A stretch of DNA of 64,000 nucleotides from assembly GCA_041918515.1 (NCBI GenBank), contig JAYRVO010000064.1:23050-87049 (forward strand), given 5' to 3'. Under the pieces are notes generated by a model. The model was given only the letters and a program-made list of their open reading frames with translations. It was not told the DNA's origin and made no database searches. Each line of letters opens with the position of its first letter. Position 1 is the stretch's first letter. This stretch comes from Chloroflexota bacterium (GTDB lineage Bacteria; Chloroflexota; Anaerolineae; J102). The translations under genes were made by a program, and so were the position numbers. Shown here piece by piece: positions 1,687 through 60,180 of this stretch.

Positions 1687-2817
1687 ATGACGCCCACCTT
1701 CCAATCTCCAATCAACCAATCTCCAATCTCCCTCCTCCGCCCCGACATCGCCGGCATGGAAGAATACACGCCCGTGCAGCCGTTCGAGGTGCTGAGCGCA
1801 CGGTTGGGGCGCAGGCCCGAAGACATCGTCAAGCTCGACGCCAACGAAAACCCGTATGGCCCGTCCCCGCGCCTGCGTCAGGCGCTGGCCGAATTCCCGT
1901 GGTATCATATTTATCCCGACCCGCAGCAATTTGCCTTGCGCGACGCTCTTTCCCAATACACCGGCATCCCCACCGAATACATTTTACCCGGTCACGGCGC
2001 CGACGAGCTGCTTGACTATCTCTGCCGCCTCTTCCTCACTCCGGGCGACGCCATCATCAACTGCCCGCCTACCTTCGGCATGTACAGCTTCGACGCCAAG
2101 CTCAGCGGCGGGCGCGTGATTGATGTCTGGCGGCGTGACGATTCCAGCCTCGATGTCGAAGGCATCGAGCGGGCGGTGGCAGGCGAGCCGCGGGCGAAAC
2201 TGCTCTTCCTCACCTCACCGAACAACCCCGACGGCAGCCTGATCCCGCACGATGTGCTGCGCCGCCTGCTGCGCCTGCCCCTCGTCGTGGTCGTCGACGA
2301 AGCCTACATCGAGTTTGCGCCCGCTGATCAGTCCGTGGCCGCCTGGGTTCCCGACGCGCCGAATCTGGTCGTGCTGCGCACCTTCAGCAAATGGGCGGGC
2401 CTCGCCGGGCTGCGACTGGGCTATGGCATCTTCCCGGCGGAGATCATCGCACATCTGTGGAAGTTCAAACAGCCATACAATGTCAACGTCGCCGCCACCG
2501 TGGCCGGATTGATCAGCCTCGATGATTTGCCCTATTTGCGCACCCGCATCGATGCCCTCAAGACCGAACGCGACCGCCTCATTGCCGAACTCGCACACTT
2601 CCCCTTCCTCCGCCCTTTGCCCAGCCAGGCCAACTTCGTGCTCTGCCGCGTCGAGGGCCGCTCGGCGGTCGAGCTACACCGCCGCCTGGCCGAGCAAGGC
2701 ATCCTCGTCCGCTACTACGACAAGCCCGGTCTGCAGAACTGTATCCGCGTCAGCGCCGGCCGGGCGGAGGATACGGATAGGTTGTTGGCAAACTTGAAGG
2801 TAATCGACCATGTTTGA
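1687..2817 (+). CDS. hisC: histidinol-phosphate aminotransferase
   Basis: [27 protein letters not shown] and PLP-aminotransferase class II layout. N-terminus carries in-frame ccaatct repeats ([10 protein letters not shown]). Confidence 0.9.
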
Positions 2818-4147: not shown

Positions 4148-4735
4148 ATGCCAATCACCCTCACTCGCACCACCCGTGAAACCGATATCACGCTCTCGCT
4201 CGACCTGCACGGCAGCGGCCGGGCGCAGATCAACACAGGCATCGGCTTCTTCGACCACATGCTCACGCTCTTTGCCAGCCACGGCCTCTTCGACCTGACG
4301 GTGGAGGCGAAGGGCGACCTGCACGTGGACGAGCATCACACGGTCGAGGATGTCGGCATCTGCCTGGGCAAGGCCATCAGCCAGGGCCTGGGCGACCGGG
4401 CGGGTATCGTCCGCACAGCCCACAGCTATGTGCCGATGGATGAGGCACTCGGCTTTGTGGCGGTGGATTTGTCTGGCCGCCCGTATTGCGTGTTCGAGGC
4501 CGCCTGGCACACGCCGCGCATTGGTGGCCTGGGCACAGATTTGATCCACCACTTTTTCGAATCGGTGGCCATCCACGCCGCCATGAACCTGCACGCCCGC
4601 GTCCTCTATGGCCGCAACGACCATCATCAATGCGAAGCCCTTTATAAAGCCTTCGCCCGCGCCCTCGACGCCGCCACCCGCCAGGACCCCCGCCGCGTCG
4701 GCGTTCCTTCCACCAAAGGCACGCTGATTGCGTAA
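4148..4735 (+). CDS. hisB: imidazoleglycerol-phosphate dehydratase
   Basis: 195 aa. HisB motifs ([43 protein letters not shown]). Confidence 0.9.
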
Positions 4736-4736
4736 A

Positions 4737-4815
4737 CTGGTTATTGGTAATTGGTTATTGGCGATTGACCGCCAATAACCAATTACCAATAACCAATAAC
4801 CAATAACCAATAACC
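4737..4815. repeat. CCAATAA-family heptamer hairpin (inverted ggttattgg / ccaataacc arms plus a tandem ccaataa run)
   Basis: Seen directly: ggttattggtaattggttattggcgattgaccgccaataaccaattaccaataaccaataaccaataacc, between hisB and hisH. Confidence 0.85.
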
Positions 4816-4818
4816 ACC

Positions 4819-5445
4819 ATGATCACCATCCTCGACTACAACATCGGCAACGTGCGCAGCGTGCAAAAGGCTGTCGAGCGGGCTGTGGCCGACGCCGGCA
4901 GCAGTCAGGCCGTGACGCTGACGGCCGATCCGCGCGCCATCCTTGACGCCGACGGCGTGATTCTGCCGGGCGTGGGCGCGTTCGGCGCTTGCATGACCAA
5001 CTTGCAGGCCGCTCACCTTTCGTCCATCGTGCGCGAGGTCGTGGTCGAAGGCATTCCCCTGCTGGGCATCTGCGTGGGCATGCAGATGCTGTTCGAGTTC
5101 AGCGAAGAGATGGGGGAATGGCGCGGCTTGGGTTTGCTGCCAGGCCGGGTGCGGCGCTTCGAGGGCGACCTGCGCGTGCCGCAGATCGGCTGGAATCAAC
5201 TTCACCCCACTCGGCCCGATCCTCTGCTCGATGGCATCGCCGATGGCGACTACGCCTACTTCGTGCATTCCTACTACTGCGACGCTTCCAACCCCGCCGA
5301 TGTGCTGGCGACGACCGACTACGGCCTGAGTTACCCTTCCGTCATCCAGCATGGCCGCATCTGGGGCATCCAATGCCACCCGGAAAAAAGCCAGCAGGTA
5401 GGGTTGCGGATTTTGCGAAATTTTGTTCATATTGTTGATCAGTAG
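4819..5445 (+). CDS. hisH: imidazole glycerol phosphate synthase glutamine amidotransferase subunit
   Basis: GICVGMQMLF (catalytic Cys), HSYY and CHPEKS motifs of class I GATase HisH. Confidence 0.9.
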   Translation: MITILDYNIGNVRSVQKAVERAVADAGSSQAVTLTADPRAILDADGVILPGVGAFGACMTNLQAAHLSSIVREVVVEGIPLLGICVGMQMLFEFSEEMGEWRGLGLLPGRVRRFEGDLRVPQIGWNQLHPTRPDPLLDGIADGDYAYFVHSYYCDASNPADVLATTDYGLSYPSVIQHGRIWGIQCHPEKSQQVGLRILRNFVHIVDQ

Positions 5446-5535
5446 ACAAGTAAATAAGGAAACAAGTAGACAAGGAAACAAGTGGATGTGCGCCCTTGTC
5501 TACTTGTCTACTTGTTTCCTTATCTACCCAAATTA
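5446..5535. repeat. inverted-repeat hairpin (gtagacaag...cttgtctac) after hisH
   Basis: tagacaagtaaataaggaaacaagtagacaagg, then its reverse complement ccttgtctacttgtctacttgtttccttat. Likely a terminator or structured element. Confidence 0.6.
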
Positions 5536-5554: not shown

Positions 5555-6121
5555 ATGCTACAAACCCAAACTCTCACATCTTCTCGTTGGACCACCCGCG
5601 CGGCGCTCATCGTTGGCTTCGCCCTGTTCACCGGGCTGGCGGCGCAGGTGCGCATCCCGCTACCGTTCACGCCAGTGCCGGTCACGTTGCAAGTGCTGGC
5701 CGTGATCCTGGCCGGATTGCTGCTTGGCCCGCGCGCTGGCTTCCTCAGCCAGTTGACCTATCTCGGCTTAATCGCGCTCGGCGCGCCGCTGGCCGCGGGC
5801 TGGATCGGCGGCCCGACCGCTTTCGTCGGCCCCACAGCCGGCTACCTCATCAGCTTTCCGGTGGCGGCGGCAGTGGTAGGCTGGCTGGCCGGGGATGGAA
5901 AGGCGCGCGGGCGCAGCTTTTTGGCCGGGCTGGCGGGCGTGGCCGTTATCTACCTGGTGGGCGCGACCTGGCTGGCTTTGGTGCTCGGTCTCTCGCTGCA
6001 ACAGGCATTTCAACTTGGCGTGGCGCCGTTCATCCTGGTCGATGTGGCCAAAGCTCTGATCGCCGTGCTGGTCGGGCGTAGTGGCGCGGCCCTGTTGCAC
6101 AATCTCCAATCGCGAGCGTGA
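5555..6121 (+). CDS. bioY: BioY family biotin transporter (ECF S-component)
   Basis: VPVTLQ..AGLLLGP..GAPLAAGWIGGPTAFVGPTAGYLISFP is the BioY signature. Multi-TM protein. Confidence 0.8.
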   Translation: MLQTQTLTSSRWTTRAALIVGFALFTGLAAQVRIPLPFTPVPVTLQVLAVILAGLLLGPRAGFLSQLTYLGLIALGAPLAAGWIGGPTAFVGPTAGYLISFPVAAAVVGWLAGDGKARGRSFLAGLAGVAVIYLVGATWLALVLGLSLQQAFQLGVAPFILVDVAKALIAVLVGRSGAALLHNLQSRA

Positions 6122-6887
6122 AGACCCATTGAGCGGCGAACTCTCGGTGCTGTTGACCCAAATCGACGCCAAGCGCGGCCTGCTCGACCAACGCCGGCCC
6201 CTGAACGCGGGCGAAGCGGCGCGACTGCGCGAGTACATCGACGTAGAATGGACGTATCACACGAACAGCATCGAGGGTTCGACGCTCACCCGCCAAGAGA
6301 CGATGGTCGTGCTCAAGCATGGCGTCACGGTCGGCGGCAAAACCCTGGTCGAGCACCTGGAAGCGACGAATCACAAGCATGCCATCGACTACGTGATGCA
6401 ATTGGCGACGCGCGGCGCCCCACCCACCGAAGCCGACATCCTCACCTTGCACAGCCTGGTGTTGCGCGGCATCGACGACGAGAATGCGGGCGTTTATCGC
6501 CGCCGGCAGGCTTTCATCGCTGGTTCGGAATACACCCCGCCCCCGCCGCGGGCTGTGCCCGGACGCATGGCCGAATTCGGCCAATGGCTGGAGAGGACGC
6601 ACACAGCCGAACCTCGTCTGCATCCGGTCGAACGAGCCGCCCACGCTCATTTCTGGCTGATGGATATCCATCCCTTCATCGATGGCAATGGCCGCGTGGC
6701 GCGCTTGTTGATGAACCTGCTGCTCTTGCAAAGCGGCTATCCCATCGCCATCATCCGCAGCGAAGACCGCCTGGCCTACTATGCCGCTCTCGATGCCGGC
6801 CACGCCGGCCATCTGGATGACTTCCTACTGCTCGTGGCCGCCGCCGTCGATCGCACAGCCGACCTCCACCTCTCCGCCACCGATTGA
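6081..6887 (+). CDS. Fic family protein (AMPylation/Fido domain)
   Basis: HPFIDGNGRVARLLMNLLL is the canonical Fic motif. The true start is probably an internal TTG/GTG near 6129-6147, because the ATG at 6081 overlaps bioY by 41 nt. Confidence 0.75.
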   Translation: MARPCCTISNREREDPLSGELSVLLTQIDAKRGLLDQRRPLNAGEAARLREYIDVEWTYHTNSIEGSTLTRQETMVVLKHGVTVGGKTLVEHLEATNHKHAIDYVMQLATRGAPPTEADILTLHSLVLRGIDDENAGVYRRRQAFIAGSEYTPPPPRAVPGRMAEFGQWLERTHTAEPRLHPVERAAHAHFWLMDIHPFIDGNGRVARLLMNLLLLQSGYPIAIIRSEDRLAYYAALDAGHAGHLDDFLLLVAAAVDRTADLHLSATD

Positions 6888-6953
6888 CAAAAGACGCTCC
6901 TCGCCTCTCTTTCCTCGTCTCCCCGCCTCCTCGCCTCCCCATCTCCCCCACCC

Positions 6954-8659: not shown

Positions 8660-8660
8660 G

Positions 8661-8750
8661 GTTGGTTATTAGTTATTGGTTATTAGTTATTGACGTTTTC
8701 TACCAATAACCAATAACCAATAACTAATCTCCAATAACCAATCCCCAATC
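8661..8750. repeat. CCAATAA-family heptamer hairpin between GNAT and hisF
   Basis: ggttggttattagttattggttattagttattgacgttttctaccaataaccaataaccaataactaatctccaataacc. Confidence 0.85.
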
Positions 8751-8754
8751 TCCC

Positions 8755-9531
8755 ATGTTAGCCAAACGCATCATTCCCTGCCTCGATGTCAAAGACGGCC
8801 GCGTCGTCAAAGGCATCAATTTCCTGCAACTGCGCGACGCCGGCGATCCGGTCGAACAAGCACGCATCTACGATGCCGAGGGCGCCGATGAGCTCGTTTT
8901 TCTTGACATAACTGCAACGCATGAGGGCCGCAACATCATGTTGGATGTGGTGCGCGCCGTGGCCGATTCAGTCTTCATCCCCTTCACGGTCGGCGGCGGG
9001 CTACGTACGGTCGAGGACATGCGGGCCATGCTCCAGGCCGGGGCCGACAAAGTGTCGATCAACTCCGCCGCTGTGGCTCAGCCCGATCTCATCAGCGCTG
9101 GCGCCGAGCAATTCGGCAGCCAGTGCATCGTCGTTGCTATCGACGCCCGGCGACGGAGCGAGGGCGGTTGGGAGGTGTACACGCACGGCGGCCGCAAGCC
9201 CACCGGTATCGACGCCATCGCCTGGGCGCAGGAGGCGGTGGGGCGAGGTGCGGGCGAAATCCTCCTCACCAGCATGGATCGCGATGGCACCGCCGCCGGT
9301 TACGACATCGAACTGCTGCGCGAAGTCGCCGACGCTGCGCACGTACCCATCATCGCCAGCGGCGGCGCCGGCCTGCCCGAACACTTTTTCGAGGCGCTGA
9401 CCAATGGTGGAGCCGACGCCGCTCTCGCCGCCACCCTTTTTCATTACAAACAACTGACCGTGCCTGATCTCAAACGCTTTCTGCTCGAACGCGGCCTGCC
9501 CATTCGCCCGGTGGAGGCCCGCCATGCTTGA
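8755..9531 (+). CDS. hisF: imidazole glycerol phosphate synthase cyclase subunit
   Basis: [32 protein letters not shown] and SGGAG motifs. Confidence 0.9.
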
Positions 9532-9865
9532 TCCCGACCTGGTTCGCTTCGACGACCGCGGCCTCATCCCCGCCATCGTCCAGGACGCCGACACCGGTGC
9601 GGTGCTGATGCTGGCCTATATGAATCGGCTGGCGCTGGAGCGCACCCTCGCCACCGGTCAGACGCACTTCTGGAGCCGCAGCCGCAACGAGCTTTGGCAC
9701 AAGGGCGCCACCAGCGGCAACATCCAGCAGGTGGAGGAGATCGCCCTCGATTGCGACGGCGACGCTCTCTTGCTGCGCGTGCATCCGGCCGGCCCGGCCT
9801 GTCACACGGGCGAGTCAAGCTGCTTTTTTCGGCCTCTCGTCGATGTCGTGAAACGTGAGGCGTGA
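9524..9865 (+). CDS. hisI: phosphoribosyl-AMP cyclohydrolase
   Basis: [31 protein letters not shown] and CHTG motifs. Overlaps the hisF stop. Confidence 0.85.
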
Positions 9866-10100
9866 GGCGTGAGGCGTGAGGCTGTAATGGGACATGATTG
9901 TATTTGTTCACTAGCCACCTGACAGTTTCCGAAAATAGGACGCGGACGAGCGCGAAAAACGCGGAAAAAGCGCTTCTTTGCCGTGAATTTGGAGAAAAAT
10001 CCGCGTTCATCCGCGTTTATCCGCGTCCCATTCCCAAAGTGTCAGGTAGCTAGTTTATTCGTGCCATTCGTATATTCGTGTTATTCGTGATGAAAAAAGT
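9848..10100. repeat. composite repeat region: (tgaggcg)x4, a ~140-bp element with imperfect terminal inverted repeats (ctagccacctgacagtttcc / ggaaactgtcaggtagctag-like) and internal GGACGCGGA/TCCGCGTCC palindromes, then a tattcgtg-type heptamer run
   Basis: Seen in sequence at 9848-9890, 9922-10058 and 10060-10098. AT-richer than the surrounding DNA. Confidence 0.6.
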
Positions 10101-14127: not shown

Positions 14128-14177
14128 ATTCGGCAACCACGAAGACACGAAGAAACAAAAACACGAAGACAGTAAAG

Positions 14178-14570
14178 ATGGCTCATCTCCCCATTTCTGA
14201 ACAGGAAGAGCATATCGCCAGGCATATTGTGGACGCGGCGTTTACGGTTCACCGCACGCTTGGGCCTGGTCTGCTGGAGAGCGTGTATGAAGTTTGTTTC
14301 TGCCACGAGCTTGCTAAACGAGGCCTGTCACACCAACGACAGGTTGTCGTACCGATTCTTTACGATGGCCTCTGCATCGATGATGGCCTGCGGCTCGATG
14401 TTCTTGTCGAAGAGTTGGTCATTTGCGAATTGAAAGCCGTGGAAGTGGTTCATCCTGTATTTACGGCGCAATTGCTGACCTATCTGAAACTGACCGAAAA
14501 ACGGCTGGGATTTCTCATCAACTTCAATGTGCCCTTGATCAAGCAGGGTATCCAACGCTTTGTTCTTTGA
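14178..14570 (+). CDS. GxxExxY protein (PD-(D/E)xK nuclease-like fold family)
   Basis: 131 aa. GPGLLESVYEVCFCHEL is the GxxExxY motif. Conserved ..GFLINFN C-terminus. Confidence 0.65.
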   Translation: MAHLPISEQEEHIARHIVDAAFTVHRTLGPGLLESVYEVCFCHELAKRGLSHQRQVVVPILYDGLCIDDGLRLDVLVEELVICELKAVEVVHPVFTAQLLTYLKLTEKRLGFLINFNVPLIKQGIQRFVL

Positions 14571-14940
14571 ACTTTGTGCCTTTGTGTCTTCGTGGTGAAT
14601 ATAACCACCTCCACTTTCACACCAGCCATGCTCTTCCGCTCCTTGTTCTTTGACCTTCGTGCCTTTGTGTCTTCGTGGTGAATATAACCACCTCCACTTT
14701 CACGCCAGCTATGCGCTTCCGCTCCTTGTTCTTTGACCTTCGTGCCTTTGTGTCTTCGTGGTGAATATAACCACCTCCACTTTCACGCCAGCTATGCGCT
14801 TCTGCTCCTTGTTCTTTGACCTTCGTGCCTTTGTGTCTTCGTGGTGAATATAACCACCTCCACTTTCACACCAGCTATGCGCTTCCGCTCCTTGTTCTTT
14901 GACCTTCGTGCCTTTGTGTCTTCGTGGTGGATGGAGTTTT
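14561..14940. repeat. 83-bp tandem repeat, about 4.6 copies
   Basis: The motif tgttctttga recurs at 14561, 14644, 14727, 14810 and 14893 (period 83). Unit: ..gtgcctttgtgtcttcgtggtgaatataaccacctccactttcac(g/a)ccagc(c/t)atgcgcttc(c/t)gctccttgttctttgacc. An imperfect inverted copy (cacgaagacacgaag) lies at 14130-14170. Confidence 0.9.
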
Positions 14941-14945: not shown

Positions 14946-17900
14946 ATGTATTTCCGCCTTGAACTTACCCCCCGCCGCGGCCCGGACGACGGCCGCGCCA
15001 AAGCCACCCTGGCCACTTGCCGCGCCCTCGGCCTGACCGACCTCCCCCCCGTCGTCGTCTCCGACCTCTACTTCCTCGACGCCGACTTGTCCTTGCCCGA
15101 AGTCGAAGCCCTGGCCGCCACCGCCCTCCTCGACCCCGTCGCCGCCGAGCTTGTCGTTCAGCCACAGCCACAGCCATCGTCCATCGTCCATCGTCCATCG
15201 TCCGTCGAAATCACCTTCCTCCCTGGCGTCACCGACAGCGTGGCCGACAACCTGCTGGCGGTGGCGCACAGCCTGGGCTACGAAAACGTGCGGGCGGCGG
15301 CATCCGGCTTGAGCTACAGCTTCCTCGGCGAAGTCACCCCCACTGACCTCGACCACATCGCCCGCGACCTTTTGGCGAACGGCACCGTGCAACGCTATGT
15401 GATCGGCCAGCAGATTGCGCCGCCGTTCGTGGAAACGCACGAGCTGGCCGCGGGTGAGCGTTTGGTCGAGACCATCGCCATTCGAGATCAGGGCGAAACC
15501 GGGCTGCTCGCTCTCAGCCGTGAGCGCCGCCTCAGCCTCGATCTGGCAGAGATGCAAGCGATCCAGGCGTATTTTCGCAGTGAAGGTCGCGAGCCAACCG
15601 ATGTCGAGCTGGAAACCCTGGCGCAGACCTGGTCCGAGCATTGTGTGCACAAAACGTTTCGGGCGGAGGTGGAGTACCGGAGCGAGGAGGGAGATATCCC
15701 CGCTTCTTCGCCTCCCGTTTCCTCGCCTCTCCTCATCGACGGCCTGCTGAAGACGTATATCCGGGCAGCGACGGAGGCGGTGAATAAGCCGTGGGTGCGC
15801 TCAGCGTTTGTGGACAACGCCGGCATCATCGCCTTCGACGACACGTTCGACCTGGCCTTCAAGGTGGAAACGCACAACCACCCCTCGGTGCTGGAGCCGT
15901 TCGGCGGAGCGGACACGGGTGTGGGCGGGGTCATCCGCGACATTTTGGGCGTCAGCGCCAAGCCCATCGCCAACACCGACGTGCTCTGCTTTGGGCCGGA
16001 AGACTTGCCGGATGACAAACTCCCGGCCGGGGTGCTGCACCCGCGCCGCGTCGCCGCCGGGGTCATCCACGGCATCGAAGATTACGGCAACAAGATGGGC
16101 ATCCCCACCGTGAATGGAGCCGTGCACTATCATCCCGGCTACACCGCCAACCCGCTGGTCTATTGCGGTTGCCTGGGCATTTTGCCGCGCGGCAGCCACC
16201 GTTCGTTGCACGAAGCGCAGGCTGGCGACCTCATCGTCGCCATCGGCGGGCGCACGGGGCGCGACGGGCTGCGCGGGGCCACGTTCTCCAGCATGGAAAT
16301 GGATCACACCACCGGGGCCATCGCCAGCACCGCCGTGCAGATCGGCAACCCCATCGTCGAAAAGCAAGTGATGGAGGTGATCCTGCGGGCGCGCGACGCT
16401 AGGCTGTACAACGCCATCACCGACTGCGGCGCCGGCGGATTCAGCTCGGCGGTGGGCGAGATGGGCGAGCACGTGGGCGCGAGCGTGCAGCTTCAGGGCG
16501 TTCCGCTCAAATATCCGGGCTTGCAGCCGTGGGAGATTTGGCTTTCGGAGGCGCAAGAGCGCATGGTGCTGGCCATCTCGCCAGCCCATTGGCTGGCATT
16601 CCAGCAGATTTGCCGGGCGCACGATGTCGAAGCCAGCATCCTGGGCGAGTTCGATGGCTCCGGCCGATTGCGCGTGGCCTACGGCGAGACAATCGTGGCC
16701 GATCTCGACATGCACTTCCTGCACGATGGCGTCCCCCGCCGCCGCCTCACGGCCGTTTGGTCCCCGCCCGACCTGGCCAACCCCAACCCCGCCTCCTCGC
16801 CTCCTCCCCACCTCGCCTCCTCACTCCTCCGCCTCCTCGCCTCCGCCAACATCCGTTCGCGTGCCCCCATCATCCACCGCTACGACCATGAAGTCCAGGG
16901 CGGAACGGCTGTCAAGCCGCTAGTCGGGGTCGATCAGTGCGGGCCGAGCGACGCAGCAGTCGTGATCCCCCAACCGCTCCTCGCCTCCTCTTCCCCACCC
17001 GCAACTCGCCACCCGTTTCCCGCAGCCGTTTTGTCCGCCGGCCTCAACCCCCGCTACGGCCTCATCGACCCGTATGCTATGGCCTGGGCCTGCGTGGACG
17101 AGGCTTTTCGCAATGCCGTGACTGTGGGCGCTGACCCCGACCGTATCGCCATCCTCGACAATTTTTGCTGGGGCAACCCCAATCTACCCGACCGCCTTGG
17201 CGCGCTCGTGCGCTGCGCCCAGGGCTGTTTCGATGCTGCCATCGTTTATCAAACGCCTTTCATCTCTGGCAAAGATAGCTTGAACAATGAGTACATGGGC
17301 GAGGATGGCCAGAAGCACGCCATCCCCGGAACCCTGCTCATCTCCGCCCTCGGCATTGTCCCGGATGTGACCCGCACGACCACGAGTGACCTGAAAGCGC
17401 CCGGCGATTATCTTTATCTTTTGGGCGAGACTCGCCCCGAACTCGGCGGCTCGGCCTATCTCGACCTGCTCGGCGAAATCGGCACTTCCGTCCCCCAATC
17501 CTATCCTGCCCCGCTCGACCGCCTGCGCGCTCTGCACGGGGCCATCGCCGCCGGACTCGTGCGCGCCTGCCACGACCTCAGCGAAGGCGGGCTGGCCGTG
17601 GCCCTGGCCGAAATGTGCATCGGCGGCGGTTTGGGAGCGGAAATCAACCTGTCAAGCATTCCTCCCCAATCCTCAATAACCAATACCCAATTACTTTTCT
17701 CCGAATCCCTCGGCCGCTTCCTGATCGAGGTCGAGCCTGGCCATGCGGTCGAGTTCGAAGCGATGCTGGCAGGGCAGCCCGTGGCGTCGATCGGACGGGT
17801 GACCGCCGAGAAGAATATGGTTCTTGACGCTGGAACTGAGCGCGTCGAGGTCTCGATTGCCGACCTGAATCATGCTTTCTGTGGAGAACCGGCGCCATGA
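14946..17900 (+). CDS. purL: phosphoribosylformylglycinamidine synthase subunit PurL with N-terminal PurS-like extension
   Basis: 984 aa. PurL AIR-synthase-related domains (HKTFRAEVEY, ETHNHPSVLEPFGGADTGVGGVIRD, AIGGRTGRDG). Contains several in-frame low-complexity repeat inserts. Confidence 0.85.
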   Translation: MYFRLELTPRRGPDDGRAKATLATCRALGLTDLPPVVVSDLYFLDADLSLPEVEALAATALLDPVAAELVVQPQPQPSSIVHRPSSVEITFLPGVTDSVADNLLAVAHSLGYENVRAAASGLSYSFLGEVTPTDLDHIARDLLANGTVQRYVIGQQIAPPFVETHELAAGERLVETIAIRDQGETGLLALSRERRLSLDLAEMQAIQAYFRSEGREPTDVELETLAQTWSEHCVHKTFRAEVEYRSEEGDIPASSPPVSSPLLIDGLLKTYIRAATEAVNKPWVRSAFVDNAGIIAFDDTFDLAFKVETHNHPSVLEPFGGADTGVGGVIRDILGVSAKPIANTDVLCFGPEDLPDDKLPAGVLHPRRVAAGVIHGIEDYGNKMGIPTVNGAVHYHPGYTANPLVYCGCLGILPRGSHRSLHEAQAGDLIVAIGGRTGRDGLRGATFSSMEMDHTTGAIASTAVQIGNPIVEKQVMEVILRARDARLYNAITDCGAGGFSSAVGEMGEHVGASVQLQGVPLKYPGLQPWEIWLSEAQERMVLAISPAHWLAFQQICRAHDVEASILGEFDGSGRLRVAYGETIVADLDMHFLHDGVPRRRLTAVWSPPDLANPNPASSPPPHLASSLLRLLASANIRSRAPIIHRYDHEVQGGTAVKPLVGVDQCGPSDAAVVIPQPLLASSSPPATRHPFPAAVLSAGLNPRYGLIDPYAMAWACVDEAFRNAVTVGADPDRIAILDNFCWGNPNLPDRLGALVRCAQGCFDAAIVYQTPFISGKDSLNNEYMGEDGQKHAIPGTLLISALGIVPDVTRTTTSDLKAPGDYLYLLGETRPELGGSAYLDLLGEIGTSVPQSYPAPLDRLRALHGAIAAGLVRACHDLSEGGLAVALAEMCIGGGLGAEINLSSIPPQSSITNTQLLFSESLGRFLIEVEPGHAVEFEAMLAGQPVASIGRVTAEKNMVLDAGTERVEVSIADLNHAFCGEPAP

Positions 17901-18490: not shown

Positions 18491-18555
18491 TACCCATCGC
18501 CATCCTCCACGCCCCCGGCACGAACCGGGACACCGACGCCGCTATCGCTTGTTAG
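18487..18555 (+). pseudogene. remnant duplicate of purQ 5' end
   Basis: ATGATACCCATCGCCATCCTCCACGCCCCCGGCACGAACCGGGACACCGACGCCGCTATCGCT is near-identical to the genuine purQ start at 19318 (MIPIAILHAPGTNRDTDAAIA vs MPPPPIAILHAPGTNRDTDAAIA). Terminated by TAG, then the TA cassette. Confidence 0.55.
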
Positions 18556-18981: not shown

Positions 18982-19198
18982 GTAGCAACTCTTCGAGTTT
19001 TTCTTCAGTCAATCCACGTTCCATTGCTTTGTCACTCATTTCATCCATGATGTTGGCTAAAGAACTAGAACGAGTCGCGTATTCACGTAGCCAAAGATTC
19101 ATCAGCATCTGTAGTTTTGATTTGGTCTCTTTCGATGCCGAACGATAGGCTTGTGCTAATTCGGAATCGACTTGCAGTGTGACAGTGGCAAGCGCCAT
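18971..19198 (-). CDS. antitoxin (cognate to PIN toxin), start uncertain (19198-19246)
   Basis: Small ORF overlapping the PIN start by 11 nt (MALATVTLQVDSELAQAY...EEKLEELLRER). Confidence 0.5.
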   Translation of the reverse strand: MALATVTLQVDSELAQAYRSASKETKSKLQMLMNLWLREYATRSSSLANIMDEMSDKAMERGLTEEKLEELLRER

Positions 19199-19317: not shown

Positions 19318-20136
19318 ATGCCCCCACCTCCCATCGCCATCCTCCACGCCCCCGGCACCAACCGGGATACCGACGCCGCCATCGCTTTCGAGCTGGCTGG
19401 CGGCAGCCCTGAAATCGTCCACGTCAACCAACTTCTCGCTGGCGAACGCCGCCTCGCTGACTACGCCCTGCTCGTCGTTCCCGGCGGCTTCTCGTATGGC
19501 GACGACCTGGGCGCGGGCAAACTGTGGGCCGTGCGCCTGCTGCACGATCTCGGCGAGCAGCTTCGTGCTTTTGCGGATGCGGGCAAACCCATCCTCGGCA
19601 TCTGCAACGGATTCCAGGTGCTGGTGAAGACGGGGCTGCTGCCGGGAGCAGGGGACGAAGGTGGCAAGTGGCAGGCGGCAATCTCCAATAACCAATCTCC
19701 AATAACCAATCTCCAACTCGCCACCCTCACCCGCAACGAATCCGCGCATTTCGAATGCCGATGGGTGTGGCTAGAGCCGAATGTTGCCAATCGTTCACCC
19801 TGGTTGGCCGGACTCGACCGCATCCATTGCCCGGTAGCGCATGGCGAAGGCAACTTCATGACCCGCGACGCCGCTGCACTCGATGCCATCCTGTCGCAAA
19901 ACCTCGTTGCCTTCAGCTATGTCGATGCCGATGGCCGCCCCGGCCCCTATCCGATCAACCCCAACGGCTCGGCCGCCGACATCGCCGGCGTGACGAACGC
20001 CAGCGGCAACATCCTCGGCCTGATGCCACATCCCGAAGACCATATCTTTCCCTGGCAGCACCCGGCGTTCCATCGCGGCACGGCCGGCTGTTCCGGTCTG
20101 AAACTTTTCCAGAATGGCGTCTCCATGACAAAGTGA
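19318..20136 (+). CDS. purQ: phosphoribosylformylglycinamidine synthase subunit PurQ (glutamine amidotransferase)
   Basis: IAILHAPGTNRD, GGFSYGDD, GICNGFQVL (Cys) and HPE motifs. Contains an in-frame ccaataacc/ccaatctcc insert ([17 protein letters not shown]). Confidence 0.85.
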   Translation: MPPPPIAILHAPGTNRDTDAAIAFELAGGSPEIVHVNQLLAGERRLADYALLVVPGGFSYGDDLGAGKLWAVRLLHDLGEQLRAFADAGKPILGICNGFQVLVKTGLLPGAGDEGGKWQAAISNNQSPITNLQLATLTRNESAHFECRWVWLEPNVANRSPWLAGLDRIHCPVAHGEGNFMTRDAAALDAILSQNLVAFSYVDADGRPGPYPINPNGSAADIAGVTNASGNILGLMPHPEDHIFPWQHPAFHRGTAGCSGLKLFQNGVSMTK

Positions 20137-20212
20137 CTGGGTGACAAGGTGACAAGGTGATCGCAGCGACATCACCTTGTCACCTTGTCACCTTGTCACC
20201 TTGCCACCGTAT
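20137..20212. repeat. GGTGACAA-family octamer hairpin
   Basis: gtgacaaggtgacaaggtgatcgcagcgacatcaccttgtcaccttgtcaccttgtcacc, a perfect inverted arrangement. Confidence 0.85.
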
Positions 20213-33018: not shown

Positions 33019-33180
33019 TTTGGCGTATAGCGTATTTCGTATTACGTGTTCCGTAGCAATCACCCTGAGAGATACGAAATACGTAATACGGGATAAAATT
33101 ATTGCGTATTGCGTATTTCGTAGGAATAACGCACCATTCCAAGAAATACGCAATACGTAATACGCAACACGCAATACAAC
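33019..33180. repeat. CGTAATA/CGCAATA-family heptamer hairpins
   Basis: gcgtatttcgtattacgtg..., ...gaaatacgtaatacgg..., ...attgcgtattgcgtatttcgtagg...gaaatacgcaatacgtaatacgcaacacgcaatac. Confidence 0.85.
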
Positions 33181-33202: not shown

Positions 33203-34501
33203 ATGGCGCGATTTCTGCTGCGCAGCGTTCTTTCGACTATTGTCACCATGCTGATCGTCTCCATCACCCTCTTCTTCTTCCTGGAAGTGGGGTCAGGAGA
33301 CATCACGGTGAAGCTCCTGGGCATCGAATCGACGCCGGAACAGCGCGCCTCCTATCGGGCGCAGTTGGGCCTCAATGCCCCGGCCTGGCAGCGCTATCTC
33401 GATTGGCTGATCGGCAGCGATTGGCGAGTCAAGCGTCAGGTGGGGCATCGATTGGTCACGACCAAGAATCCGCAGACGGGCGAGGCAGAGTGGTGGGTCG
33501 AGGAGAACGGTGCGCTGGTGCGCTGGGAAATGAAGAATGGGGAAATGATAGTTTTCCGACGACAAGCAGACGGCACAGCCAGCCAAGAGCCGGCCACAGT
33601 TACGTGGATCACGAATGAAAAAGGCGAGCAGATCTTTTGGGGCGTCAACACCGACAACAGCGCCGTGATGTGGGTGAAAGGATCGGGAGAGACGGTGTGG
33701 GTGCGCACGAAAGCTGGGTTTCGCAAAGAAGGCGATGGCCCGCGCGAGTATATCCCGTTGCGTAAAGGCTTGATCCGCCTTGATGCCGGTAAATCCTTGC
33801 AGACGGGACGCCCCGTGGCGGTCACCCTGTTCCCGCGCGTCCGCAACACCCTGGTGTTGGCCGCCGTCGCCTTTCTCATCGTCATGCCTTTGGCCCTCAT
33901 TCTTGGCGTCGTGGCTGGCACCAACGAGGGCAAGCCCACCGATCGCACCATCTCCATCGGCGGCCTGGCGCTGACAGCTACGCCCGAGTTCGTCACCGGC
34001 ATTTTCCTCATCCTCATTTTCGGCGTGTGGCTCAAGATATTTCCCGCTGTCGCCATTTTTACCAGCGCCAACGCTATTTTCGAAAACCCGAAGCTGCTGG
34101 TTCTGCCCGTGCTGACGCTCACCGCCGCTGAATTGGGCTATGTGGCGCGCATGACCCGCGCCAGCATGGTCGAGGTGATGGATACCGCCTACATCCGCAC
34201 CGCCATCATCAAGGGCATGCCCCGCCGCCGGGTGATCATGAACCACGCCCTGCGCAATGCTTTGTTGGCCCCCATCACCATCATCATGCTGCATGTCAAC
34301 TGGCTGATCGGCGGCGTCGTGGTGGTTGAGTCGATCTTCGGCTATCCTGGCCTGGGCACGTATATCTATCAATCGGCCATCTTCGGCGACATCAACGCCG
34401 TCGAAGCCGCCGCCATGCTCATGGTCATCATCGCTGTCATCACGCGTCTGCTGGGTGATTTTGCGTATACGATGTTGAATCCGCGCATTCGGTATTCGTA
34501 A
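33203..34501 (+). CDS. ABC transporter permease (OppB/DppB type) with large periplasmic insert
   Basis: N-terminal TM helix, then a 170-aa loop, then the EAA-like MTRASMVEVMDTAYIRTAIIKG permease signature. Confidence 0.85.
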   Translation: MARFLLRSVLSTIVTMLIVSITLFFFLEVGSGDITVKLLGIESTPEQRASYRAQLGLNAPAWQRYLDWLIGSDWRVKRQVGHRLVTTKNPQTGEAEWWVEENGALVRWEMKNGEMIVFRRQADGTASQEPATVTWITNEKGEQIFWGVNTDNSAVMWVKGSGETVWVRTKAGFRKEGDGPREYIPLRKGLIRLDAGKSLQTGRPVAVTLFPRVRNTLVLAAVAFLIVMPLALILGVVAGTNEGKPTDRTISIGGLALTATPEFVTGIFLILIFGVWLKIFPAVAIFTSANAIFENPKLLVLPVLTLTAAELGYVARMTRASMVEVMDTAYIRTAIIKGMPRRRVIMNHALRNALLAPITIIMLHVNWLIGGVVVVESIFGYPGLGTYIYQSAIFGDINAVEAAAMLMVIIAVITRLLGDFAYTMLNPRIRYS

Positions 34502-34582
34502 GTAGAGATTAGAGATTAGAGATTGCAATCTCCAATCTCTAATCTCTAATCCCCAATAACCAATCTCCAATAACCAATAACC
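34502..34582. repeat. GAGATTA / CCAATAA heptamer hairpin
   Basis: gtagagattagagattagagattgcaatctccaatctctaatctctaatccccaataaccaatctccaataaccaataacc. Confidence 0.85.
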
Positions 34583-34585
34583 ACC

Positions 34586-35512: not shown

Positions 35513-35622
35513 ACGAGGCTGGACGAAGATAGACGAAAGTTGACGAAAACGCGCGCACCCGCCCTCCGCCCCCTGCCCTCTGATCTCTGATTTCTGACCT
35601 CTGATTTCTGATCTCCGCCCAC

Positions 35623-40708: not shown

Positions 40709-44479
<3,771 letters not shown>

Positions 44480-48984: not shown

Positions 48985-49744
48985 CGCCTTTCCTGCCCTG
49001 CTCGACTTCGAGCAGCGTTTGGGCTTCGCCTTCAGCGACAAATCCCTGCTCCTGCGCGCGCTCACCCATCGCTCCTATCTGAACGAAACCGCCATCGCCT
49101 ACGCCGACAACGAGCGCCTGGAATTCCTCGGCGACGCCGTCCTCGACCTCATCGTTGCTGAACTGCTCTACCAACGCTTCCCCGAACAACGCGAAGGCTT
49201 CCTCACGGCTTTGCGCGCCAAATTGGTGCGCCGCGAAACCCTGGCCCAGTTCGCCCGCCAACTCGAACTGGGTCCTCTTCTCCTCATGGGCAAGGGCGAA
49301 GAAGATGGCGGGGGCCGCGAGCGCGACGCCATTCTGTGCGCTACTTTCGAGGCCCTGGTGGGAGCCATGTATCTCGACCAGAGCCTGAATGCCACCGCCG
49401 CCTTTCTCATCCCCTTCGTCCGGCCAGAGATCGACCTTGTCAGCGACGGATACTTGCACAAAGACCCCAAGAGCCTGCTCCAGGAATGGGCGCAGGCCGA
49501 GCTGAACGCTACGCCCACCTACATCACCACCGCCAGCGAAGGCCCCGACCACGCCCGCGCCTTCACCGTCGAGGTGCGCATTGCTGGCGTCACCTACGGC
49601 GTAGGCAAAGGCCAGAGCAAGCAACGCGCTGCCCAGGAAGCCGCGCGCGCCGCCCTGGCAGCCTTACCCCGTGCGGGCGACGCCGATGATAGGGAGACGC
49701 AGGGACAGGGTGGCAAGGTGACGGCGCTGAGTACAGCGCGGTGA
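48965..49744 (+). CDS. rnc: ribonuclease III
   Basis: NERLEFLGDAVL (RNase III signature) and a dsRBD in the C-terminus. Confidence 0.9.
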   Translation: MASNQSNAFPALLDFEQRLGFAFSDKSLLLRALTHRSYLNETAIAYADNERLEFLGDAVLDLIVAELLYQRFPEQREGFLTALRAKLVRRETLAQFARQLELGPLLLMGKGEEDGGGRERDAILCATFEALVGAMYLDQSLNATAAFLIPFVRPEIDLVSDGYLHKDPKSLLQEWAQAELNATPTYITTASEGPDHARAFTVEVRIAGVTYGVGKGQSKQRAAQEAARAALAALPRAGDADDRETQGQGGKVTALSTAR

Positions 49745-49850
49745 CAGGGTGACAAGGTGGCGGCGCTGAGTACAGCGCGGTGACAAGGTGACAAGGTGAT
49801 TCTGCCCTCCGCCCTCCGCCCTCCGCTCTCCGCTCTCTGCTCTCTGCCTC
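49728..49850. repeat. GGTGACAA octamer and CTCCGCC heptamer repeats
   Basis: aggtgacggcgctgagtacagcgcggtgacagggtgacaaggtggcggcgctgagtacagcgcggtgacaaggtgacaaggtg, then ccctccgccctccgccctccgctctccgctctctgctctctgcc. Confidence 0.85.
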
Positions 49851-51463: not shown

Positions 51464-51527
51464 TCCGCTCCTCCACTGCCCACTGCCCTCTGCCCTCTGC
51501 TCTCTGCTCTCTGATCCGCCGCCCCGC

Positions 51528-56589: not shown

Positions 56590-56740
56590 ACGGGGGGATT
56601 GGTTATTGGTTATTGGGGATCAGCAATTCCAAATTTGTGGACGCGGATCGAAAGAACACGGATTCTTGGCCATAAAACTATCCGTGTTTCCCCCATCCGT
56701 GTCCACAAGGAGATTGGAGATTAGGGATTGGGGCATGTCT
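56590..56740. repeat. composite element: ggttattgg repeats plus a GTGGACGCGGAT-family palindromic unit plus ggagattgg repeats
   Basis: ggggattggttattggttattgggg..caattccaaatttgtggacgcggatcgaaagaacacggattcttggccataaaactatccgtgtttccccc is related to the 100-bp unit at 60221-60547. Confidence 0.7.
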
Positions 56741-57563: not shown

Positions 57564-59029
57564 CACAGGTAGCCCAGGCTGCGCAGGTGCCGTTCCAGGC
57601 CGGGGTCCAGGGTGGCGGCCGGGGCTTCGTCGCGAGCGCTCAGCCGAGCGGCGGCTGCGGCGGCTGGGGTCAGCGAGGAGAGGCGGGCGTCGAGCGCGGC
57701 CGCAAGGTCGGCGACGCGCTGGGGTTGGGCCGCGGCCAGGTCTTGGCATTCGCCGGGGTCGTCCTCCACGTCGTAGAGTTCGCTCTCGCCGCGGCTGCTG
57801 CGGATGAGCTTGTAGCCGCCGCGCACGAGCGCATCGAAGGTGCGGTCGTAGCCTTTGCTGGCGGGGTCGAAGCGGGGATGGCGGCGGGCGAAGCGATGGC
57901 GGTGGGGGGCGGTGTATTGGATGATTGCGAATTGCGAATTGCGAATTGCGAAATCGGAGGAGAGAAGGGAGCGGCCGGGGAGGGCTTCGTCCTGAGGCTT
58001 CGTCCCGAGGCTCAGCCCGAGGGGCTCAGCCCGAGGGGGGGGACGGTGGTCGGGGGGGGCGGCGGCGAGGTCGAGGAGGGTGGGGAAGAGGTCGGTGTGT
58101 TGGACGGGGGCGTCGTCGTCGCCGGGGGGGAAGACGCTGGGGTAGTGGATGAGGAGGGGGACGTGGGCCAGGCTGTCGTAGACGCAGTATTGGTGGTCCA
58201 TGAGGCCGTGGTCGCCGATGTTTTCGCCGTGGTCGGCGGTGACGATGATCATCGTGTTTTCCAGACCGCCGACGGCGCCGAGGAAGTCGAGCAGCTCGCC
58301 CAGTTTGTGGTCGACGTAGTTGATCTCGGCGTCGTAGAGGGCGCGCAGGCCGAGGAAGTCGAGGTCGGTCATGGGGATTTCGCCGGCCATGTAGGCCCAG
58401 GCGTCCTGGTTGGCCTGGCGGGCGCGGCGCAGGGCGGCGGGCTGTAAGAGGCGCTCGGCGTAGCCGGGGGGCGGCTGGTAGGGCAGGTGGGCGTCGAGGT
58501 AGAGGCCGAAGAGGAAGAAGGGGCGAGCGGGGTCGCGTTCACGCGCCCACCAGCGCTGCACATAGGTGTTGAGTTTGGCCGCGCCTTTGTCGTGGCGTTC
58601 GAACACGCGCTTGCGCAGGGCTTTTTCCCAGCGAGGGAAGGGGAGGCGGCCCTGGCTGGGGAGCAGCCGCCAGAGTGAGTAGAAGCGCTCGAAGCCTCGG
58701 TCGAGGCCGAAGTGCGGTCCCACCCAGGCGTTGGTGGAGAAGGCCGCCGTCTGGTAGCCCAGTTCGCGCAGGGCGGCGGCCAGGGTGGGGAGGGCGGGGT
58801 CAAGAAGGCGCTGCTCGACATTGACGCCGTGTTGGCGGGGGAAGAGGCCGGTGAAGAGGCTGGCGTGGCTCTCCAGCGTCCAGACAGAGGCGGCGCGGGC
58901 CTGGGTGTAGCGCCGGCTGGCCGCGGCCAGGTTATCGAGGCGCGGGGTCACGGGCAAGGGATTGCCGTAAGAGCCGAGGCCATCCGCGCGCACGCAGTCG
59001 AGGACGAGGAGGAGGAGGTTGGGGGGCAT
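57563..59029 (-). CDS. sulfatase family protein (alkaline-phosphatase superfamily)
   Basis: LLVLDCVRAD (Cys/Ser for formylglycine), ADHGE motif. Contains in-frame inserts PRAEPLGLSLGTKPQDEA and FAIRNSQFAI (from ttgcgaa repeats). Confidence 0.75.
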   Translation of the reverse strand: MPPNLLLLVLDCVRADGLGSYGNPLPVTPRLDNLAAASRRYTQARAASVWTLESHASLFTGLFPRQHGVNVEQRLLDPALPTLAAALRELGYQTAAFSTNAWVGPHFGLDRGFERFYSLWRLLPSQGRLPFPRWEKALRKRVFERHDKGAAKLNTYVQRWWARERDPARPFFLFGLYLDAHLPYQPPPGYAERLLQPAALRRARQANQDAWAYMAGEIPMTDLDFLGLRALYDAEINYVDHKLGELLDFLGAVGGLENTMIIVTADHGENIGDHGLMDHQYCVYDSLAHVPLLIHYPSVFPPGDDDAPVQHTDLFPTLLDLAAAPPDHRPPPRAEPLGLSLGTKPQDEALPGRSLLSSDFAIRNSQFAIIQYTAPHRHRFARRHPRFDPASKGYDRTFDALVRGGYKLIRSSRGESELYDVEDDPGECQDLAAAQPQRVADLAAALDARLSSLTPAAAAAARLSARDEAPAATLDPGLERHLRSLGYL

Positions 59030-60034: not shown

Positions 60035-60180
60035 GTCAAGGTGACAGGGTGACAAGGTGGCAGGGTGACAAGGTGGCAGGGTGACAGGGTGACAGGGTGA
60101 CAAGGTGACAAGGTGACAGGGTGACAAGGTGACAAGGTGACAAGGTGACAAGGTGATAAGGTGATGGGGTGACAAATCAT
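60035..60180. repeat. GGTGACAA/GGTGACAG octamer array (about 17 units)
   Basis: caaggtgacagggtgacaaggtggcagggtgacaaggtg...gtgacaaggtgataaggtgatggggtgacaaatc. Confidence 0.9.

Follow-up and report, generated by a model that had tools for sequence, protein, structure and literature searches.

Heptamer and octamer tandem repeats in operon junctions and linker-coding sequence of a Chloroflexota genome

Results

Tandem-repeat hairpins in the his operon

Short tandem repeats built from units of 7 or 8 nt occur between and within housekeeping genes of a 64,000-nt stretch of DNA (the window hereafter) from a Chloroflexota bacterium (GenBank assembly GCA_041918515.1, contig JAYRVO010000064.1, positions 23,050 to 87,049). 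The closest relatives of its PurL are all from Caldilineales or other Chloroflexota metagenome-assembled genomes (MAGs), with 81% protein identity in the best match, which places the window in the Caldilineales. Arrays were located over the 64 kb with Tandem Repeats Finder (TRF) and, as a second method, with a strict tandem detector, using shuffles (TRF) and 50 Markov-3 simulations (strict detector) as chance baselines. An array was counted as part of a hairpin if it had a complementary partner within 130 nt. The comparative samples comprised 80 Chloroflexota purL loci and 161 sources (1.63 Mb), and relatives are coded L001 and so on.

A run-bearing operon of the order hisC...hisB-hisH-(bioY-like)-Fic-hisA-GNAT-hisF-hisI...hisE contains the element from which this study departs, a hairpin in the hisB-hisH spacer (4738..4816; features lie on the forward strand unless marked minus). 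It fills the gap between the hisB stop codon TAA (4733-4735) and the hisH ATG (4819), and it reads TAA-AC-(TGGTTAT TGGTAAT TGGTTAT TGGCG)-ATTGAC-(CGCCA ATAACCA ATTACCA ATAACCA)-ATAACCAATAACCAATAACCACC-ATG. The 5' arm of TGGTTAT-type units (4738-4763) and the 3' arm (4770-4795) pair over 26 of 26 bp around a loop at 4764-4769, and the stem is followed by an unpaired 23-nt CCAATAA run that ends in CCACC ahead of the hisH ATG. By synteny, hisB and hisH share a 4-nt ATGA overlap in L004, against the 83-nt insert of the window. Among other relatives, the hisH junctions carry different units in L081 and L082 (TTGAGAG; CAACAAT/CAACAGT; AATCCGC) and none in L084 and L085.

Further hairpins lie in the same operon. 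Directly 3' of the hisH stop codon, an octamer hairpin (5446..5527) pairs ACAAGGAA-type with CTTGTCTA-type units over 30 of 33 bp, upstream of a BioY-family open reading frame (ORF; 5555-6121) that is missing from L004 at the same junction. Ahead of hisF (8660..8755), a TTGGTTA/TTAGTTA arm (8662-8692) pairs with a CCAATAA arm (8704-8734) over 28 of 31 bp, and a CCAATCT/CCCCAAT tail runs into the hisF ATG (8755); the GNAT|hisF junction of relatives has no repeats and measures 37 nt in L001 and 22 nt in L004. The operon has other runs as well. A solo C-rich period-8 run of CTCCTCGC (6897..6946), for which there is no complement, fills the spacer between the Fic-domain gene and hisA and ends in CCCACCC before the ATG. 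TRF and translation place a TCCAATC run (x4.4; 1700..1731) in frame in an N-terminal extension of hisC, upstream of the conserved domain, which begins at residue 27 in the hidden Markov model match. Four copies of GGCGTGA (9854..9882) overlap hisI and provide its stop codon TGA (9863-9865), the run being G-rich on the coding strand just past the end of the gene; the hisI|hisE junction is likewise short in relatives.

A near-identical strain contig, L161, is 100% identical to window positions 5620-9876, and the three arrays over these 4.3 kb have the same copy number, so that the comparison of copy number between strains came down to this single contig and showed no change. Homology between L161 (1-407) and the window (5494) breaks off precisely where the 3' arm of the 5450-5527 hairpin begins. 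An unrelated acyltransferase-like gene lies beyond the break, which is either a rearrangement or an assembly mis-join at the repeat.

The repeats far exceed chance expectation

The repeats are real, strongly non-random and far above chance. TRF found 22 period-7 arrays in the window against 2.0 in shuffles, and 12 period-8 arrays against 2.5, while periods of 10-11 were at expectation, thus the excess is period-specific. The strict detector returned 10 period-7 and 2 period-8 arrays, with none in the 50 simulations. A frequency no higher than composition predicts, which a first-pass annotation of this DNA had named as counting against its reading, is contradicted in the window by the large excess seen with both methods. 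At least 10 unit families occur within the 64 kb, and their units are contiguous 7-8-mers without spacers, unlike the 23-50-nt direct repeats with unique spacers that define clustered regularly interspaced short palindromic repeats (CRISPR).

The period-7/8 runs listed in the first-pass annotation were recovered by TRF at 1700, 4738/4772, 8662/8702, 9854, 15174, 19679, 20126/20172, 33025-33177, 34503/34526, 35559, 41492, 49704/49804, 51473, 56598/56709, 57924 and 60037; the sole site that TRF missed, the purL run at 17655, is present in the sequence, yet too degenerate for the program. The proposed in-frame runs were also borne out, in hisC, purL (three sites), purQ, a GH13-like protein and a sulfatase. 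On the other hand, the count of at least 15 long perfect hairpins was too high, as a complement within 130 nt exists at only six junctions (4738-4795, 5450-5527, 8662-8734, 20126-20206, 33025-33177 with nested stems, and 34487-34564), which hold seven stems of 19-32 bp. Runs of single-stranded type, without complement, lie at 6897, 9854, 15174, 35559, 41492, 51473, 57924 and 60037. Non-hairpin runs are mostly G-poor and either abut start codons or lie in frame within protein linkers.

Runs within the pur genes

Runs also occur along guaB-purL...purQ-purA. CCATCGT (x4.9; 15174..15207) is in frame in the PurL linker between LLDPVA and VEITFLPGVTD, giving the peptide PSSIVHRPSS, and the same unit stands there in L001 with a different copy number. 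This linker (LLxDPVTE to IExTxLPGVTD) is non-repetitive in array-free lineages, including L009 and L027, and carries in-frame runs in array-rich ones, where other lineages have other units or run-plus-complement hairpins in frame (GAGATTG x4 ... CCAATCT x4, read as ERLEIGDWRL...QSPISNLQ). The window purL further contains, in frame, a C-rich period-8 run of CGCCTCCT (16782..16844) and, near the PurL C-terminus, a degenerate CCAAT(A/C)N run below the TRF threshold (17655..17695; PPQSSITNTQ). In purQ, (CAATCTC CAATAAC) x2.7 (19679..19716) is read in frame as NNQSPITNLQ. An octamer hairpin (20126..20208) then pairs GGTGACAA-type with TCACCTTG-type units over 31 of 35 bp; its 5' arm overlaps the purQ stop codon (20134-20136), and purA starts downstream at 20237, preceded by CCCACC. 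The purQ|purA junction, too, is short in relatives by synteny.

Neither 7 nor 8 is divisible by 3, so a run passes through all three reading frames and only stop-free units survive in genes. Stop-free units make up 80% of those in genes and 64% of intergenic ones (p = 0.006), and in L025 a TGA to TGG variant occurs precisely in the one unit where TGA would be in frame. This requirement explains part of the strand bias inside genes.

The pur region also contains insertions of another kind. A 1.4-kb insertion separates purL and purQ (17897-19386; the gap is about 100 nt in relatives), carries a PIN-family toxin gene on the minus strand (18556-18981) and has at its border a 58-nt duplicate (95%) of the 5' coding end of purQ (18492-18549 and 19329-19386). 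The last 78 nt of purA (21420-21497) recur downstream in three copies of 87-92% identity (22296-22379, 23081-23143 and 25868-25945), each bordering small inserted genes, as if serial insertions had regenerated the gene end.

Distribution, geometry and vocabulary across genomes

Of the 80 Chloroflexota purL loci, about 25 have period-7/8 arrays at high density (3-13 per 10 kb) and about 40 have none. Among the array-rich loci are those of Caldilineales, Ardenticatenaceae, Promineifilaceae (Ca. Leptofilum, Ca. Hadersleviella) and some Thermoflexales, and in part of the Chloroflexota the repeats characterise whole lineages (Caldilineales, Ardenticatenaceae, Promineifilaceae and relatives). The searchable literature yielded no description of repeats of this kind from Chloroflexi, and exact-protein look-ups for HisH, HisB, a permease and P0001 gave no match.

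Over the 161 sources, array density was 4.6 times higher outside genes than in coding sequence, with 54% of arrays lying in called genes. Intergenic arrays were mostly between co-directional genes (107 of 122). Of the two junction types at which the first-pass annotation proposed to test for enrichment, co-directional ones have 0.12 arrays per junction and convergent ones about 4-fold fewer (0.03); divergent junctions have 0.07. Among co-directional intergenic arrays, 47% had a complementary partner; the share was 24% for coding arrays and about 1% for shuffles, and many runs are solo. Median values for the 55 distinct hairpins are 28 nt for the stem, 11 nt for the loop and 0.88 for complementarity, and insert lengths vary from 40 to 185 nt.

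Hairpins begin with a G/T-rich arm and end with a C/A-rich one: the 5' arm was G-rich in 24 of 25 intergenic and 15 of 16 coding cases (39 of the 41 scored). We withdrew the reading that arm polarity follows transcription, as an inverted repeat shows the same arm first on both strands and the flip is trivial. Because the convergent G-rich strands are intrinsic, the G-poor arm adjoins the downstream start whichever way the hairpin is transcribed. The sense strand is C-rich in 39 and G-rich in 16 cases next to starts, and G-rich in 21 against 4 next to stops (Fisher p = 6.5e-6). The sense-strand bias of solo arrays is only moderate (63 vs 27 inside genes, 18 vs 8 near starts).

The units had been described as locus-specific in the first-pass annotation, which does not hold, since 353 identical-unit pairs link different loci against 30 +/- 5 for permuted units. 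Seventeen units occur in at least three loci, with 2.6 expected. The main ones are GGAGATT (the commonest), TGGTTAT and GGTGACAA, and the window and distant orders have GGAGATT/AATCTCC (8 loci), AAGGTGAC (5) and AATACGC (4) in common. Units average 49% GC in genomes of about 58-62% GC. A search for a single common unit motif gave 4.1 bits against about 3.6 for permuted units; this null was flawed by re-seeding, and the result was not used. Outside cellular genomes, (GGAGATT)x3 occurs on 17 viral contigs, with about 0.03 expected by chance, and on the sense strand an ATG usually follows it directly. These high-GC contigs (L172-L188, from IMG/VR) carry several heptamer runs each (GGAGATT, GGAGACC, GAAAATT, GTTGGCA), and the runs directly upstream of ATG include a ...CCACCATG context that is also present in the window.

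Signals of transcription and translation

The repeat hairpins are not transcription terminators. None of the 32 intergenic hairpins has a T-tract after the stem, stem GC is 0.41 against a locus GC of 0.58, and a terminator scan skips the repeat hairpins and calls canonical GC-stem/T-run terminators at 10444 (after hisE) and 12467. Genes behind runs had a Shine-Dalgarno (SD) core upstream in 7 of 52 cases, as compared with 96 of 318 other genes (p = 0.012), and in the window they start after ...CCACC, ...CTCCC, ...CCCACCC or ...CCCCGC. Mimicry of the SD or anti-SD sequence by the arms was rejected, as unit-permuted controls scored similarly (4.55 vs 4.31 and 4.26 vs 4.09, p ~0.09).

Arm mismatches in the 55 hairpins showed no RNA wobble signature (39 G.U, 57 A.C, 99 other), and with it no visible selection on pairing of the sense RNA. 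Four tracts of three or more G, hence G-quadruplex potential, were present in 13 of 265 arrays overall and in 0 of 25 in the window. No target-site duplication was found at the insert borders of hisB|hisH, GNAT|hisF and purQ|purA when compared with the empty junctions of relatives, and a scan of the window at Rfam gathering thresholds returned zero family matches.

Cassettes between complementary runs

At the guaB|purL junction of the window, a GxxExxY gene (TIGR04256/PF13366 PDDEXK_3, E 4.9e-41; 14178..14570) lies between complementary octamer runs (14136-14159 and 14573-14596). The motif of the enclosing 5' arm, ACCACGAAGACACGAAGA... (14136..14171), also flanks homologues in Roseiflexus and others. 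The 83-bp x4.5 tandem repeat at 14560..14929 holds in each unit the 3' arm CCTTCGTGCCTTTGTGTCTTCGTGGTG, complementary to 14136-14159, and therefore represents the 3' flank of the cassette in duplicated form. Across Chloroflexota classes, Roseiflexus included, GxxExxY homologues have 75-84% identity and lie at unrelated insertion sites with the same ACCACGAAGACAC... and ...GTGTCTTCGTGGT flanks (Roseiflexus and metagenomes; homologue loci L162, L164 (Roseiflexus) and L165-L171). Gene and flanks together look like an undescribed, horizontally mobile cassette resembling an intervening sequence (IVS).

The same junction in L001 (6693-7229) has a four-helix-bundle gene (TIGR02436, E 1.5e-25) between GGGTGGC and GCCACCC runs, with an arm score of 40 against a shuffle maximum of 33; this hotspot thus carries different cargo and arms in the two genomes. 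In L083 (1631-2141), a four-helix-bundle-like ORF (TIGR02436; 23S rRNA IVS protein/Avd-like) also lies between complementary runs. Significant complementarity between the flanks was seen for 9 of 14 cargo ORFs. Pairs of complementary runs 1.5-2 kb apart were considered as further cassettes and turned out to be same-family runs at neighbouring junctions. The arms of the GxxExxY cassette have the opposite polarity (A/C-rich arm first) and a vocabulary unlike that of the CCAATAA, GAGATTG and GGTGACAA hairpins. Because of these differences, the cassette does not explain the CCAATAA/GAGATTG hairpins; it shows that repeat-built stems can travel with mobile DNA.

Further repeat sites in the window

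The oligopeptide ABC transporter operon has a run at every junction. Nested heptamer stems (CGTATTA/ACGAAAT and TATTGCG/AATACGC; 33025..33177) lead from the oligopeptide-binding protein gene to the first permease gene and are followed by a normal AGGAG ribosome-binding site. Between the two permease genes, a hairpin of TAGAGAT x3 and CAATCTC-type units with a CCAATAA tail (34487..34585) ends in CCACC before the ATG, and its 22-nt run-to-start junction CCAATAACCAATAACCACCATG (34567) is identical to that at 4800 (4800-4821). A solo CTCTGAT run (35559..35615) abuts the start of the ABC ATPase gene (35623); a purine-rich 10-mer run precedes it (35507-35547) and is not complementary to it.

The operon rnc-rmlD-like-...-smc also bears runs. 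A GGTGACAA run and a non-complementary CTCCGCC run (49704..49848) lie at the end of the RNase III gene and then before the RmlD-like gene, whose conserved domain starts at ORF residue 20. In this region (48965-49799), rnc (48965-49744) ends within the GGTGACAA run, which provides its last codons and stop and has a 39-nt super-unit with the internal GC hairpin GGCGCTGAGTACAGCGC. The spacer before smc (51528) is filled by a solo C-rich run (51473..51513) of CTGCCCT/CTCTGCT units, not CTCCGCT as first annotated.

On the minus strand, CGGAGAG x12 (sense; 41492..41579) is in frame in the GH13-like protein, giving ESGERRAESGERRTESGERR, and TCGCAAT x4 (57924..57952) is in frame in the sulfatase, giving FAIRNSQFAI. 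A solo run of 17 copies of TCACCTTG (sense; 60037..60175, minus) ends 17 nt before the start of dtd (60019). Runs of CCAATAA x2.7 and AATCTCC x3 (56598..56731, minus) are in direct orientation and flank a separate palindromic element, TTGTGGACGCGGAT...ATCCGCGTCCACAA, present there as one copy (56635-56708). The same element forms a 100-bp x3.4 tandem (60210-60548) adjoining the 17-copy TCACCTTG run, and ATCCGCGT triplets related to the TTGTGGACGCGGAT palindrome occur in the hisI-hisE spacer (9999-10026).

A second family of repeats is built from 13-nt GGCTTCGTCCCGA and 14-nt GGCTCAGCCCGAGG units, arranged as tandem and as inverted copies (38452, 40808-40861, 41439-41465, 45324-45455, 45823, 57623 and 57983-58036), which in frame give the same peptide, RAEPLGLSLGTKP(R/Q)DEA, in the GH13-like protein and the sulfatase. 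Besides, a perfect palindrome resembling repetitive extragenic palindromic (REP) elements, GTAGTAACGACTTTAGTCGTT, is found at 27160-27213 (inverted copies at 27160/27193) and 50710-50730, and also in L010 (~2410-2470) and L001 (~2553-2575); its sequence is kept across related genomes, unlike that of the heptamer runs.

Discussion

Recurrent insertion into tolerant DNA

The insertions are recent and recurrent, as relatives have tight or overlapping ancestral junctions, and they entered tolerant DNA, namely the stop-to-start gaps of operons and linker-coding stretches. We consider it likely, though well short of certain, that they are long simple-sequence repeats like the short tandemly repeated repetitive (STRR) sequences of cyanobacteria, arising by recurrent DNA-level seeding and slippage of shared-vocabulary units into permissive DNA and then filtered by selection. 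Seeding would be a DNA-level copying event, by template switching or by import of an existing run, and expansion and contraction by replication slippage would follow. Selection would merely filter survival: within genes, it would retain runs that are stop-free in three frames and fall in disordered linkers, and at operon junctions those inserts that fold on themselves and have a G-poor tail free of start codons and SD sequences up to the AUG. In the polycistronic mRNA, formerly overlapping cistrons would probably be uncoupled, with the downstream gene relying on SD-independent initiation from an unstructured C/A-rich leader, and a stem of at least 20 bp would be a plausible RNase III or stability element.

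The templated spreading that had been proposed instead of simple slippage is in part supported. Inserts stand in junctions that relatives have as 4-nt ATGA overlaps or as plain spacers of 20-40 nt, free of proto-repeats, the vocabulary is common to several orders and viral contigs, the 22-nt junction is identical at 4800 and 34567, and an octamer stem pair travels with the mobile GxxExxY gene. On the other hand, relatives differ in copy number, as slippage predicts.

Several observations weigh against seeding followed by slippage and filtering. Because the common vocabulary, the AT-rich units in a 62% GC genome and the missing local proto-repeats misfit plain in-situ slippage, they leave room for a sequence-specific or mobile source. 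The unchanged copy numbers in L161 give no support to hypermutability. Fold-back copying finds no support in arm complementarity, which is 0.669 within a hairpin and 0.670 with same-family arms from other loci, although three of four hairpins in the window are more mirror-like than this average. The steady position right before AUGs, on viral contigs too, could mean a selected function. Furthermore, genes were called by a home-made method based on GC at third codon positions (GC3) and many loci are orthologous, so that the counts are not fully independent.

Alternative explanations

The alternative that survives best, although we hold it to be unlikely, is that the repeats are selected intercistronic elements acting at the RNA level, in which the stem protects or processes the mRNA (as an RNase III site or a block to 3'-exonucleases) and couples stop to start, and the tail is an SD-independent leader (S1 or standby binding). 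Inserts exactly occupy the gap between stop and start, with 0-30 nt left to the AUG, operon junctions have hairpins at twice the rate of genes (47% vs 24%), and the stems, at 19-32 bp, have the length that RNase III requires, an enzyme encoded here at 48965-49744. SD cores are lacking ahead of the genes that follow runs, compact viral contigs obey the same rule, and stability, coupling or translational regulation have been proposed for STRR and TAACTGA repeats (PMC2670836; PMC4679880). However, the sense strand has no excess of G.U over A.C mismatches (39 vs 57), the orthologous junctions of relatives function without an insert while units and presence turn over quickly, and the same structures stand in frame inside purL, where processing would be harmful; nor is there an Rfam match.

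Less probable still is that the repeats derive from mobile cassettes, as remnants or as non-autonomous copies. The complementary runs would then be the ends of selfish-ORF cassettes, and the ORF-less hairpins empty derivatives akin to miniature inverted-repeat transposable elements (MITEs), spread by copying from locus to locus and from genome to genome. The GxxExxY gene between arms (14136-14929), the four-helix-bundle ORFs of L001 and L083, the complementary flanks of 9 of 14 cargo ORFs, the recurrence of the ACCACGAAGACAC / GTGTCTTCGTGGT flanks at unrelated sites and the identical 22-nt run-to-start junction at two loci all fit such an origin. It is opposed by the separate vocabulary and opposite polarity of the cassette arms, by the at least 10 unit families in 64 kb, and by the many solo runs; target-site duplications, fixed termini, a fixed length and a linked transposase are all missing.

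A further, improbable account holds that the runs are written not by slippage but by a dedicated sequence-templated process common to several mostly filamentous lineages and to mobile DNA, for example by a short template copied repeatedly onto both 3' ends at a break or gap, in a telomerase-like manner, before joining. If true, this would account for the converging G/T-rich strands, the independent same-family arms, the short irregular loops and unequal arms, the junctions without proto-repeat, the GxxExxY or four-helix-bundle (Avd-like) genes trapped between arms, and the near-identical units (GGAGATT, GGGGATT and GGGAATC) that recur in Chloroflexota and viral contigs as well as in Nostoc and Xanthomonas. 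At 4738-4795 the stem is a perfect mirror image down to its non-unit bases, which argues against this account at that site.

We give very little weight to the view that the arrays regulate their neighbours at the DNA level as G-quadruplexes or protein-binding sites, as proposed for the Xanthomonas and Nostoc heptamers. Their geometry and strand rule are those of the G-quadruplex-forming GGGAATC repeats, and the 7-8-nt spacing and shared vocabulary would suit a repeat-binding protein, yet four G-tracts occur in only 13 of 265 arrays and in none of the 25 in the window, many units coexist, and the runs are tolerated in coding sequence. Finally, that they serve as intrinsic terminators or insulators, as the first-pass annotation suggested, is hardly credible: stable stem-loops do lie between genes, and one cyanobacterial STRR hairpin has been suggested as a terminator (PMC2670836), but the stems are AT-rich and lack T-tracts, the scan calls others only, convergent junctions are depleted, copies stand in frame in purL, and the operons that contain the hairpins (his, pur and opp) have contiguous or overlapping genes in relatives.

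Implications

Heptamer runs near start and stop codons have been reported piecemeal for 35 years, from cyanobacteria, Xanthomonas and Beggiatoaceae, with no accepted origin or function. That a fourth, unrelated phylum and viral contigs show the same geometry and strand rule, with near-identical units, suggests a single shared process and not peculiarities of each lineage. The Chloroflexota repeats add constraints to any such process, as inserts replace overlapping junctions in essential operons, hairpins stand in frame in purL, and neither a wobble bias nor G-quadruplex potential is found. In practice, the runs mislead gene callers, which extend starts into repeats, create repeat-encoded protein linkers, and may break or mis-join metagenome assemblies.

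Comparison with known repeat systems

The repeats are a Chloroflexota addition to the known class of heptamer repeats and STRR sequences, with which they share the architecture, while differing in host, unit sequence and G-quadruplex potential. Rehm et al. (2015) described GGGAATC heptamers in Xanthomonas and GGGGA(T/C)T heptamers in Nostoc PCC 7120, which are intergenic and mostly separate co-oriented ORFs; a Xanthomonas genome has 70-75 convergent inverted pairs, and 7-11% of the repeats lie within genes (PMC4692102). The G-rich run is on the non-coding strand when it lies 0-50 bp ahead of an ORF, and on the coding strand when it lies 0-50 bp past a stop or overlaps one; these heptamers vary in length and sequence among close relatives and have no linkage to insertion sequence elements (PMC4692102). 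A 'long simple-sequence repeat' class was set out by Mrazek et al. (2007), as far as the summary in PMC4679880 presents it.

Our repeats agree with the Xanthomonas and Nostoc heptamers in the over-represented 7-nt tandems, the co-oriented bias, the strand and position rule and the convergent inverted pairs, and GGAGATT of Chloroflexota is one base from GGGGATT, which also occurs here. They differ in the many unit families found side by side, among them 8-mers and AT-rich units that have no G-tracts, so that G-quadruplex formation cannot be the common denominator. Other differences are the Chloroflexota host, the location of about half of the arrays in called genes, with in-frame hairpins in an essential gene, the replacement of overlapping stop/start junctions by inserts, and the enclosure of small ORFs by some arm pairs.

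In cyanobacteria, an STRR hairpin of mostly 7-bp repeats lies in the hupS-hupL intergenic region; its function is unknown, one such hairpin was suggested to terminate the upstream gene, and transcript stability or translational coupling has been proposed (PMC2670836). Heptanucleotide runs forming hairpins between co-transcribed genes of filamentous bacteria are shared with our system, whereas the host is not a filamentous (heterocystous) cyanobacterium and the classical units are essentially missing. The classical STRR1-3 units are CCCCAGT, TTGGTCA and CAACAGT. In tandem, these units were found in 2, 0 and 1 of the 161 sources, respectively, and none of them in the window.

MacGregor (2015) described direct TAACTGA repeats from marine Beggiatoaceae, some Cyanobacteria and Bacteroidetes, whose runs reach to within a few nt of start codons without a ribosome-binding site (PMC4679880). 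They have a single unit and inverted pairs in 1 of 170 sets, and they occur in housekeeping operons; their spread across phyla suggests horizontal transfer, and translational regulation was proposed (PMC4679880). The runs described here also stop near start codons where SD cores are rare, yet many units and frequent pairs take the place of a single unit with almost no inverted pairs, and tandem TAACTGA was absent from all 161 sources.

The cassettes resemble the 23S rRNA IVS with its S23p/four-helix-bundle ORF (Coxiella, PMC4990558) in having a stem of complementary flanks around a small selfish ORF, with TIGR02436 genes in L001 and L083; they differ in lying between protein-coding genes (guaB, purL), in stems built of tandem 7-8-mers, and in the GxxExxY cargo of the window. 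Like the REP elements and bacterial interspersed mosaic elements (BIMEs) of enterobacteria, our hairpins are intergenic within operons, transcribed and not terminators, but REPs are one conserved imperfect palindrome per genome, spread by REP-associated tyrosine transposases (RAYTs), as opposed to at least 10 tandem unit families in 64 kb. Unlike MITEs, the inserts have no target-site duplication, fixed termini or family-specific length. The tandem repeats of Borgs (PMC9879509) have longer units, are multiples of three in genes, direct rather than inverted, and located on archaeal extrachromosomal elements, while in common with our repeats they are pervasive and fast-evolving and, within genes, create new disordered protein segments.

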